Shown here in pieces: positions 45,125 through 51,199 of a stretch of 64,000 nucleotides of DNA. The DNA lies in the NCBI GenBank assembly GCA_951406725.2, contig OX597827.1, positions 6,510,001 through 6,574,000 of the forward strand. Direction: 5' to 3'. The notes under the pieces are model-generated. The model searched no databases. It was not told the origin of the DNA and saw only the letters and a list, made by a program, of their open reading frames with translations. The position numbers and the translations under genes are program-made. The first letter of the stretch is position 1; each line of letters opens with the position of its first letter. This DNA comes from Octopus vulgaris (taxonomy: Eukaryota).

Positions 45125-45550
45125 CAATTATATAAAATCTTTAAAAAGAAATTATCAGTAGTCAGCGTGAAAAACCTCGTAAGAGAAAAAATCAATATAA
45201 TAATACCCTCAATATAATATATATATATATGTATGCAATATATATATATTTATATATGTGCAACGGCTATATATATATATATATATAGGTGTAGGAGTGG
45301 CTGTGTGGTAAGTAGCTTGCTTACAAACCACATGGTTCCGAGTTCAGTTCCACTGCGTGGCACCTTGGGCAAGTGTCTTCTACTATAACCTTGGGCCGAC
45401 CAAAGGCTTGTGAGTGGATTTGGTAGACTGAAAGAAGCTCGTTGTATATATGTACACACAAGTAGAGACAACCAAAATATTATTAGTTTTGAAATAATGC
45501 CATACAAATGTTATAACCCTCCCTGGCAAATGTAATTTACGGTCAATAGA

Positions 45551-45556
45551 TGGATG

Positions 45557-45588
<32 letters not shown>

Positions 45589-45706
45589 GACGATGATGAT
45601 GATGATGATGATGATGATGTTGATGATGATGATGATGATGTGTTGGTGGTGGTGGTGGTGGTGGTGGTGGTGGTGGTGGTGGTGGTGGTGATGATGATGA
45701 TGGTGG

Positions 45707-45770
<64 letters not shown>

Positions 45771-45808
45771 AGTGTTGGTGGTGGTGGTGGTGATGATGAT
45801 GATGGTGG

Positions 45809-45839
<31 letters not shown>

Positions 45840-45959
45840 AGTGTTGGTGGTGGTGGTGGTGGTGATGATGATGATGGTGGTGATGGTGGTGGTGGTGATG
45901 ATGGTGATGATGATGATGATGATGATGATGATGACGACAACCATGATGACGATGATGAC

Positions 45960-46012
<53 letters not shown>
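45551..46012. repeat. Compound (GAT)n/(GGT)n microsatellite
   Basis: Direct reading. Confidence 0.95.
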
Positions 46013-46013
<1 letters not shown>

Positions 46014-46628
46014 ACTGGTGGAGGTGGGGTGTGCAGGTGACAGGCAATGGTGACAGTGATAATGATAATGAATAATACTTCAATCACTCGGGATTGAAAT
46101 ACATCCTCAGAATCCCAGATAAACACTAGATTATAGCCTTATTTATATATTCTCATTAATCAAAATCATCTCAGGTTGTCAGTATATACACCAGGAGCAT
46201 TCTTATTTCTTTCTAGCAGAGTTATATTTAGCCGTTAACAAGAGTCTGACGCAAGCCCAGAATGGTAAACTATCAGACTATCCCTGTGAATAATTGATTA
46301 ATTACTGCTTTATTCATATATATATACATATATTGATAGAAATGGTAAGACAACAAAAGAATGAAAGAGACCTCGATATTATGTAAATAGAGGAATTTAT
46401 CTGTAAATATAATATACTCTCTTTTACTCTTTTACTTGTTTCAGTCATTTGACTGTGGCCATGCTGGAGCACCACCTTTAGTCGAGCAAATCGACCCCGG
46501 GACTTATTCTTTGTAAGCCCAGTACTTATTCTATCGGTCTCTTTTTGCCGAACCGCTAAGTGACGGGGACGTAAACACACCAGCATCAGTTGTCAAGCAA
46601 TGCTAGGGGGACAAACACGGACACACAA

Positions 46629-46661
<33 letters not shown>

Positions 46662-47142
46662 CATATATACGACAGGCTTCTTTCAGTTTCTGTCTACCAA
46701 ATCCACTCACAAGGCATTGGTCGGCCCGGGGCTATAGCAGAAGACACTTGCCCAAGATGCCACGCAGTGGGACTGAACCCGAAACCATGTGGTTGGTTAG
46801 CAAGCTACTTACCACACAGCCACTCCTGCACCTATATGTGACAATTTTTTGGTAACCATGATGAAACTTCAAGTTTCGGATGTCGGGGCGGAAACCGATG
46901 CCAGTATCTCTTCAGTTATCGGGCCATCAAAAAAATGCTATGAAAATTTTATCCTATATTAGATACAAATTTAATACTATTCACTTCCGAACTCTCTCAC
47001 TTTATGAGAATTTTCAGTCCGATCAAACATGTCTCGAGGAATGCTGTAGAATTTCTATTTTGGGGTACTTAAGTGTACACATGACTTAGTGTTTACTTCT
47101 TCCATGGGTATAAGTAAGTATTTCATTTATTTCTTACCGCAT

Positions 47143-47203
47143 TTATTGCTGACGAAGAGAAAATTCTTATGAATTAACTCTGAAATCGGGGCCGATCCAA
47201 TAA
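47143..47203 (+). ncRNA. Type I hammerhead ribozyme motif, intact core
   Basis: Stem I UUAUUG/CAAUAA; core CUGACGA (47149-47155); stem II AGAG..AAUUC-UUAU-GAAUU..CUCU; GAAA; stem III UCG/CGA; cleavage triplet AUC (after 47197). Confidence 0.8.
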
Positions 47204-47473
47204 TAACAGAATTTTTTTAGAAATTTCTGTCGGCTTACTTCAAGACGCATGGTTATTGACGATTTAAGTCCATTTTCGGCATATTTGGCCTTAGAATTTT
47301 TTTCTTTTGTTTTTGTTTATAAGATGTTTATGAATTTAACCTTTAAAGATATTTTTTAATATGCTGGCCATTGATAGAATTTTTTCAAAAGATTTTATCC
47401 TATATTAGATGTATATGTTGGATCATTAGCCCCTACACACATTTTTTTTCTCTCCTTGTTTCTTTTCTGTGTA

Positions 47474-47511
47474 TCTTTCTGTTGAAGAGCGTAGGCTCGA
47501 AACGTAAAAGA
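47474..47511 (+). ncRNA. Minimal hammerhead-like motif (A6U variant), same family (~47425-47610)
   Basis: UCUUU-CUGUUGA-AGAGC-GUAG-GCUC-GAAA-CGUA-AAAGA. Confidence 0.55.
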
Positions 47512-47624
47512 CTTGTTTTATTTCTATTCCTGAGCACCATACTAATACAATTGTTTGTTTGTACACCACCTGCCTTCGTCTTTAGTTTATTTTCGTAAAC
47601 CTTCCCATTTTATATATATATATA

Positions 47625-48078
47625 TATGGTTGGTAGAAGGAAACTGAGAGAAGCCCGTTTGTGTATGCATGTATGTGTGTGTGTGTGTGTGTGTATTTGT
47701 GTGTCTGTGTTTGTCCCCCTGCCATCATTGATAGCCAGTGTTGGTGTGTTTGCGTCCTTCTAACTTCGCAGTTCAGCAAAGGAGACCAATGGAATAGGTG
47801 CTGAGCTAACAGAGAGTGTAAATCCCGGGGTTGATTTGTTCGACTAAAGGTGGTGATATATAAATTTCTTTTATTTCTTTTACTTGTTTCAGTCATTTGA
47901 CTGTGGCCATGCTGGAGCACCACCTTCAGTCGAACAACTCGACCCTGGGACTTACACTCTCTGCAAGCCCAGCACCTATTCCATTGGTCTACTTTGCTGA
48001 ACTGCCAAGTTAGAAGGACACAAACACACCAACACTGGCTATCAGTGATGGCTGGGGGACAAACACAGGCACACAAAT

Positions 48079-48110
<32 letters not shown>

Positions 48111-48190
48111 ACACACACACACACACACAAATACACACACACACACACACACACACAAAGACACACACACACACACACACACACACATGC
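47625..48190. mobile_element. Tail-to-tail pair of diverged SINE A 3' halves sharing private substitutions
   Basis: 47625-47855 (+) and 47870-48190 (-) share atagccagtgttgg, gtccttctaac, aatggaataggtgctg and cagagagtgtaa, which other copies here lack. Confidence 0.8.
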
Positions 48191-48726
48191 AAAGGATGAT
48201 AGCAAAGGAGAATGGGGGCACCAGCCAGCCAAAGTTTGGGGTGGGCTTCACCTGCCTACTTCGGTTGCTATGGCATTGAAGTAGATCCAGCCACCCCCAT
48301 TAACGGGGACAAAACCCGGATTTTAAACACTGGATAATGATGATGATATATACATATATACTGACATTCTGCCAGTGATGACGCTGAGGGTTCCAGTTGA
48401 TCTGATCACTGGAATAGCCAGCTTGTGAAATGACCATGCAAGTGGCTGAGCACTCCACAGACATGTGTACCCTTAATGTAGTTTTCTGGTAGAATCAGCG
48501 TAGTTCTCTCAAATAATAAGTAGTGGGCTTACAAAGAATAAATCCTGTGGTCGAATTTTCCAACTAAAGGCAGTGCTCCAGCATGGCCACAGTCACATGA
48601 CTGAAACAAGTAAAGCAATAAAAAAAAAACTATGCCATTTTAATCCTGAACAAGGCTGGGTTTCTCTGTAAGTAAGTATGCATGTACGTACGTATGTACG
48701 TGCATATGTACGTGCATATGTACGTA

Positions 48727-50402: not shown

Positions 50403-50701
50403 ATTTATGTGCTATCTGGTATATTCCATTAAAGAAGGCAGAGCATCTCTTATGCAAAGTCAGAAATCCAGGATCTGGAATTATCCAGTAAAATTTTTTT
50501 GCTAGTTTATTTTATCTCTCTGTCTACTCTCCTAGTGCTATATGAACATTTAATGTGACTTTAGGGTCAGGTTTTGACTGCTATTTCAGTGTGGTGGTAT
50601 CTCTCAGATACCCTAATTTATAGAGTTCGCCATGTTGATTCGCTAGCTTCTGCACGCATTTTTTTCTCTCCTTGTTTCTCTCCATGTTTCTTTTCTGTGT
50701 A

Positions 50702-50739
50702 TCTTTCTGTTGAAGAGCGTAGGCTCGAAACGTAAAAGA
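50702..50739 (+). ncRNA. Minimal hammerhead-like motif (A6U variant), same family (~50625-50840)
   Basis: Identical motif to 47474-47511; element ends in (TA)n. Confidence 0.55.
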
Positions 50740-51199
50740 CTTGTTTTATTTCTATTCCTGAGCACCTTACTAATACATTTGTTTGTTTGTACTCCACCGG
50801 CCTTCGTCTTTTGTTTATTTTCATAAAGCTTCCCGTTATATATATATATATATATAGCAACAGAGACGGCATGAATACCGAAAGGTAATATTTATATATT
50901 CATATCAACTTTTATGTGGGGACAAATATTATGTCCCATAAGAGATCGATCAATAAAATAATGACCAGATTTTAGAATAAGTCCTGGGGTCAATATGACA
51001 TATCAACCTATTGAAGGTGGTGCCCCAGCTTGGCCCCATAGACTGAAATCAGTTAAAAGAACATAGGAGTAACATTACGAGCATTGGTGTAAAGGTTACA
51101 GTTTTCCCAGAGTAGAAATTATTGTTGTATTAGAATATATGGACAGTTAAATTGTTTAATCTTCTAGCAAACAATTCAGCTCATGCACTGGCTTCTAAA

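Follow-up and report, generated by a model that had tools for sequence, protein, structure and literature searches.

An inverted SINE pair in the octopus genome with an ADAR-type A-to-G footprint, and related edited copies elsewhere in the assembly

Structure of the inverted SINE pair

The window, by which we mean the whole 64-kb stretch of octopus DNA that was analysed, contains many copies of a SINE of ~420 nt, and between positions 47630 and 48190 two of them lie tail to tail. As the preliminary description had recognised, they form a genomic inverted pair; its arms at 47657-47855 and 47918-48116 make up a 199-nt stem with 90% complementarity and a 62-nt loop (Table 1). The pair is predicted to fold as a long duplex (-298 kcal/mol, z -30). 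Arm 2 is likely an inserted copy and arm 1 likely a local inverted duplicate, while no clear target-site duplication was seen for the pair. Both flanks consist of other repeats. In Rfam, the best candidate was a generic hairpin match to MIR2646, which reached 108 of 245 bits, far under the threshold, and was rejected. The window also includes an A+T-rich dispersed repeat at 46943-47420, which is 80-86% similar to many loci and elsewhere often occurs as several partial copies side by side, and, at 45535-46078, a (GAT/GGT)n array of ~500 nt that contains longer repeats internally.

Table 1 Features of the inverted SINE pair and its surroundings (positions within the window).
Feature	Position	Strand	Description
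Unedited full-length copy of the same SINE	46420..46840	-	first reference sequence
Left neighbour repeat, other family	47444..47627	.	94% to 50672-50855; ends in (TA)n abutting arm 1; context
Arm 1	47630..47855	+	SINE positions 141-371 of ~421; without head and 3' end; between two (TA)n runs
Arm 1 A>G tract	47734..47818	+	9/34 scored A changed to G, every one after A or T
Loop	47856..47917	-	62 nt: short (AT)n, SINE tail and unedited 3' end of arm 2
Arm 2	47867..48190	-	SINE 3' half, 3' end and tail intact; 5' side ends in ~125-nt (CA)n
Arm 2 A>G tract	47927..48039	-	12/35 scored A changed to G, all after A/T; appears as T>C on the + strand
Right neighbour	48196..48350	+	high-copy repeat of another family with (GAT)n-like end; context

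A>G changes in the two arms

The arms belong to an older subfamily of the SINE, and we scored only those columns that hold A (or T) both in the family consensus and in this subfamily. On this basis arm 1 shows A>G at 9/34 sites (47734, 47752, 47781, 47791, 47797, 47800, 47803, 47812, and 47818) and T>C at 1/30, and arm 2 shows A>G at 12/35 and T>C at 1/29, which bears out the strand-specific excess expected from the preliminary description. The 17 subfamily copies, when pooled, give A>G 15/553 and T>C 20/478, with 0-2 A>G per copy. Taking the higher of the subfamily A>G and T>C rates as the expectation, the binomial p value is 8e-6 for arm 1 and 1e-8 for arm 2, two values that are non-independent because the arms descend from one sequence. 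Two corrections apply to the about 9-10 sense-strand changes originally counted: ccaGtg owes its G to the subfamily, where 11 of the 17 copies have it, and so does not count as an edit, and the last G of acaGagaGtG sits at a 2-nt insertion and is unscorable. The extra G attributed to the inverted partner (ttGgc, ttGca, and ctGaa) are real and lie at 48006, 47964, and 47927, respectively.

The changes lie on the SINE sense strand in both arms, and the claim that changed A are preceded by T or A holds for every one of the 9 + 12 scored sites. Specifically, 9/24 A (arm 1) and 12/24 A (arm 2) are changed after A or T, compared with 0/10 and 0/11 (0/21 for both arms) after C or G; for A after G alone, 0/8 are changed in each arm. 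G>A changes number only 5 and 4, mostly at CpG, against 9 and 12 A>G, and an APOBEC-type DNA-edited retroelement was accordingly rejected, since the G>A dominance on the sense strand is absent.

For a genomic background we sampled 1.26 Mb, comprising the window and 120 10-kb stretches, 118 of them at round positions over 29 contigs and 2 beside the window. The sample yielded 210 SINE copies that each cover at least 90 nt of the 3' half; after 25 variable columns were dropped, they total A>G 221/9422 and T>C 223/7444. By A>G excess, the top two places among these copies fall to the arms (9/34 and 12/50, with T>C 0), and no clearly hypermutated copy was found among the 208 other sampled copies. 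The window locus therefore carries an ADAR-type footprint, being dense, dominated by A>G, one-stranded, and depleted of 5' G.

A hyperedited retrocopy on C22 and its unedited parent on C2

Stronger evidence for the mechanism than the window pair itself is provided by a locus on contig C22, a 2.2-kb retrocopy of a host transcript (L182/L185, C22:50596142-50598333) in which both SINE arms are hyperedited on one strand. Another SINE lies inverted 550 nt upstream of the edited one; read on its own sense strand, it has 19 T>C changes and no A>G, so that both arms carry A>G on the same genomic strand. Elsewhere in the genome the spacer occurs once more, with 97% similarity, which led to the parent on contig C2 (L186/L288-L289, C2:~203477812-203481208); both SINEs carry A there. 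Changes from parent to child in the first 1.5 kb number 68 A>G, 15 C>T, 14 G>A, and 11 T>C, and the match between them resumes past a 1.2-kb insertion in the parent.

The A>G changes of the child concentrate in the paired arms, where they lie on the same strand (21/65 and 43/89). Outside the pairing, the counts fall to 0/12 where the second arm begins unpaired, 1/177 across the spacer, and 3/102 along the 3' flank, which gives 64/154 paired versus 4/291 outside (p 2e-29). A preceding G is again disfavoured, with 5/27 A changed after G versus 59/127 after the other bases (p 0.009). The child is truncated on its 5' side within the first arm and terminates with a second SINE family's 3' end and (GAT)n tail; a clear target-site duplication was not seen. 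This LINE-type 3' end is paralleled in the window, where arm 2 retains its 3' end and tail. Judged from the assembly sequence, the C22 copy fits a hairpin transcript that would have been edited on both arms and retroposed via the embedded SINE tail, and the window pair probably shares a history of this kind.

Recurrence in other SINE copies

To look for further edited copies, we searched the assembly with a motif that requires G at three sites and allows A or G at the others. The 12 matches comprise the two arms and ten other loci, which total A>G 120/811 and T>C 9/786 without the three required sites and four polymorphic columns, and which differ in background and in which A are changed; one of the ten, L173, shows no excess (3/59 vs 2/68). 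A two-site motif gave 46 matches, of which 30 were fetched and most were plain double mutants; six of these 30, picked on their A>G count, were used for the neighbour and region counts only. In the resulting 16 copies (the ten loci and the six picked ones), changed A amount to 65/193 after A, 46/137 after T, 6/52 after C, and 3/125 after G, whereas 312 background alignments show A>G at 2-3% after every base. Control motifs for the antisense strand returned 0 matches, 2 old copies without further T>C, or only the built-in positive control.

A motif in the 5' half gave 16 matches, 15 of them new, with A>G 96/1093 versus T>C 23/1089. Counted over whole copies, the neighbour bias of the 15 is weak (G 15/245, A 50/396, T 16/228, C 15/219). 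Several of these copies have the same set of G in common, perhaps through descent from a single edited source. In L272, L273, and L278 and in L275, L282, and L285, the same four or five G occur in the 5' half at about positions 146-164, which reflects either an editing hot spot or a small subfamily from an edited source.

Most edited copies in the motif sets are full-length SINEs that start at the head, and several full-length ones are flanked on both sides by the same microsatellite. The 3' end is mostly spared in the other edited copies (16/288, in copies that were selected on the middle region). A parent search for L183 and L175 found none. Additionally, we observed an unedited inverted SINE within ~1 kb of some edited copies, namely L183 (56-472 and 1401-1806), L264 (1423-1885 and 2496-2934), L181, and L184.

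Origin of the pair and of its second arm

The two arms share most of their G together with several changes that are not subfamily states, which indicates that they descend from one sequence. Since both are changed on the SINE sense strand, the hairpin now present in the window is not the one that was edited; a hairpin transcript edited through both arms would leave T>C on the sense strand of one arm, and this is absent. A single edited copy that was duplicated in place likely gave both arms.

We consider it very probable that the A>G cluster of the arms arose from a SINE RNA edited by ADAR, copied into the germline by LINE reverse transcription, and supplied with its second arm by local fold-back or conversion. 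Specifically, the SINE RNA would have paired with an antisense SINE at the source or in trans and been hyper-edited, presumably by ADAR; a LINE reverse transcriptase would then have primed at the SINE's own 3' tail and copied the edited RNA into germline DNA. Inosine, read as G, would have placed C in the cDNA and hence G on the sense strand. The second, inverted arm would finally have come about through fold-back or conversion at the locus. The proposal that an edited RNA was reverse-transcribed and then locally inverted or converted is thus supported; the RNA route is much better seen at the C22 copy, and the second arm is the least certain step of this history.

Three courses may be considered for that step. 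That arm 2, once inserted, was the template for a copy made in DNA where the (TA)n run had broken appears slightly more likely than not; arm 1 reaches further 5' than arm 2, so such a DNA-level copy requires a later loss from arm 2. Formation from the same RNA or cDNA during insertion is a reasonable possibility, if a less likely one, and homogenisation by cDNA conversion is quite unlikely. Twin priming was rejected: it yields a 5' inversion (PMC12016303), which a tail-to-tail pair does not match. When 155 copies were surveyed for fold-backs behind their SINE tails, 6 matches were obtained, namely the window pair, two microsatellite matches, one neighbouring SINE, and two matches of 74-75%, and the survey does not support such fold-backs as common. 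Separately, the edited SINE of L175 has its 5' flank repeated in inverted orientation immediately after the tail, over 50 nt without a mismatch (1360-1409 and 1844-1893).

A source locus for the window pair was not found by DNA search, by motif searches (30 of 271 matches fetched for one of the subfamily motifs), or through either flank. This is among the points in favour of a rewriting in place, according to which a pair already present had its own transcript edited along the stem, and a loop-primed cDNA of arm 2 then converted first arm 2 and afterwards arm 1. The locus would indeed form a long duplex of the stability given above, and the A>G tract extends no further than the stem of the window hairpin, leaving the loop untouched, with 0/22 A changed in arm 2 beyond SINE position 371, a pattern that fits editing in place equally. 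However, the 3' end is spared as well in edited copies that lack a close partner, two conversion steps are required, and editing of the stem would have reached the antisense A of arm 1 and left T>C on the sense strand, of which the arms show next to none (1/30 and 1/29). We therefore regard rewriting in place as distinctly improbable, and prefer the insertion of a copy from an RNA edited elsewhere.

The probable editing enzyme

The changes point to ADAR as the editing enzyme on the basis of their sequence context, as a deficit of G upstream marks ADAR editing throughout animals (PMC5625713). On the 3' side there is a tendency towards G, with 37/113 changed A before G versus 38/202 before A, and 22/32 versus 20/47 in the parent-child pair. 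A polymerase error, in which a reverse transcriptase or repair polymerase puts G opposite T during second-strand synthesis, or deamination of single-stranded DNA, would likewise be one-stranded and tract-like, and for the window locus taken alone no paired RNA has been identified. It is nevertheless very improbable: the changes at C22 follow RNA pairing, which disfavours a path through polymerase synthesis, the 5'-G depletion matches ADAR, and deamination of the cDNA strand would be expected to appear on the sense strand as T>C, contrary to the observed A>G.

Subfamily and assembly controls

Contigs from other sequencing runs cover large parts of both arms. Those of run X1 (organism A) contain 47717-47848 with 4 differing letters, the three listed ones lying at none of the scored G, and 47913-48035 with 1 differing letter; those of run X4 (organism A) contain 47717-47855 with 5; and those of run X2 (organism B) contain 47951-48049 with 3, so that of the 11 G sites in this interval no fewer than 8 are retained. 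These three runs, which we guess to be DNA, represent 2-3 Gb of contigs from three studies and two species. Among the pieces listed for run X7 (organism C), none lies over the edited core. At 47804-47808, arm 1 reads differently in X1 and X4 than in the window at three neighbouring letters, two of which match the family state; either the locus is polymorphic or the window has a recent cluster of changes.

A third copy of the arms' haplotype was not found in a DNA search of the 2.8-Gb assembly, in which 40 of 2973 candidates were scored and the best other match reached 84%. Exact motifs also reveal no dispersed haplotype, their matches elsewhere lying on other backgrounds. With these controls, three objections foreseen in the preliminary description can be answered: the G states are not ancestral save for the one exception noted above, A>G far exceeds T>C, and the G states are kept in contigs presumed to derive from DNA, against an RNA-polishing artefact. 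Nor is the haplotype that of a dispersed subfamily, within the candidates scored.

Ordinary causes, namely G inherited from an old subfamily, coincidence, or an assembly polished with RNA data, are therefore largely refuted and now scarcely credible: although the arms do belong to an older subfamily in which one claimed G is ancestral, a second site is G in more than a third of family copies (yet A in 15/17 subfamily copies), and the haplotype search scored a minority of its candidates, the subfamily copies have just 0-2 such G, no dispersed haplotype emerges from exact motifs, the G are present in independent contigs, and polishing from one hairpin transcript would alter the arms on the same genomic strand, whereas they are altered on opposite ones.

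Discussion

The octopus copies constitute a natural, inherited record of RNA editing in SINEs, for which avian proviruses and cultured human cells are the precedents. The record is rare per copy and includes one clean parent-child proof, which lies elsewhere in the genome. The germline as the site of copying and a LINE reverse transcriptase as the copier are probable on the evidence above. An expressed RTE LINE has been reported in octopus (PMC9115989).

The closest parallel is provided by L1-induced pseudogene insertions in human cells, of which 3/235 bear clustered T>C limited to inverted Alus (PMC11702581). The authors read these edits as the work of ADAR before reverse transcription, the same mechanism that we propose for the C22 copy, and they also describe fold-back junctions and inversions at insertion sites. 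Those insertions are somatic, induced, and obtained in culture, whereas the octopus copies are natural, fixed in an assembly, and mostly of the SINE itself; the window locus, moreover, is a copy shared by two species. In two avian retroviruses, ADAR-type A>G in retroelement RNA was recorded via reverse transcription, with about half of the A in an inverted-repeat region affected (reviewed in PMC12925331). These are exogenous agents and single variants, whereas the octopus cases are germline fossils of host SINEs and transcripts.

Strand- and motif-biased hypermutated copies fixed in genomes are known as APOBEC 'DNA editing' fossils of LTR retrotransposons, which were found by comparison with a consensus and between parent and child (PMC4866542, PMC2873906). 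They differ in being G>A changes that arise through cytidine deamination of the cDNA, and PMC4866542 selected G-to-A only, the word ADAR being absent from its text. Conversely, A-to-I hyper-editing of repeat RNA in animals, which is very high in octopus, produces dense A>G clusters in putative dsRNA with G depleted upstream (PMC5625713). There the edits are seen in RNA against DNA, the text of the article is without 'retrotranspos' or 'reverse transcri', and a 3' A preference is reported for invertebrates, while the octopus copies lean to 3' G. In plant mitochondria, edited RNA is likewise reverse-transcribed into the genome by retroprocessing, but this concerns C-to-U editing of organelle genes and conversion at the home locus (PMC4987113). 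The sections seen of PMC3197674 and PMC5199112 hold nothing on edited copies in genomes, and a search of main texts, few of them from subscription papers, brought to light no published case of an animal whose germline genome has fixed ADAR-edited copies.

RNA edits are usually regarded as non-heritable, and the edited copies represent a route into inherited DNA, at least as new insertions. As fossils, they document ADAR activity in the germline, the neighbouring bases that it preferred, and which transcripts were double-stranded. We also entertain the broader idea that octopus ADAR editing is a recurring germline mutagen, through which edited SINE RNAs and host transcripts are retroposed, small subfamilies are founded, and fold-back home loci are overwritten, although we hold this to be rather unlikely. 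If it were true, an edited A would gain a direct route to a genomic G, with a bearing on the A-to-G excess at cephalopod editing sites, which has been explained by selection in an article whose text is without 'retro' or 'reverse transcri' (PMC7703385). The rate is low, as none of the 208 other sampled copies is clearly hypermutated, so the genome-wide effect would be small unless home loci are rewritten. Additionally, such a strand-biased class of mutations may mislead the calling and dating of SINE subfamilies.

The C2 parent gained two insertions after the copying, a 1.2-kb element (C2:~203478495-203479675) and a ~230-nt element with terminal inverted repeats that sits at a TTAA site just inside the 3' end of the second SINE. 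As both postdate the copy, the C22 retrocopy is older than either.
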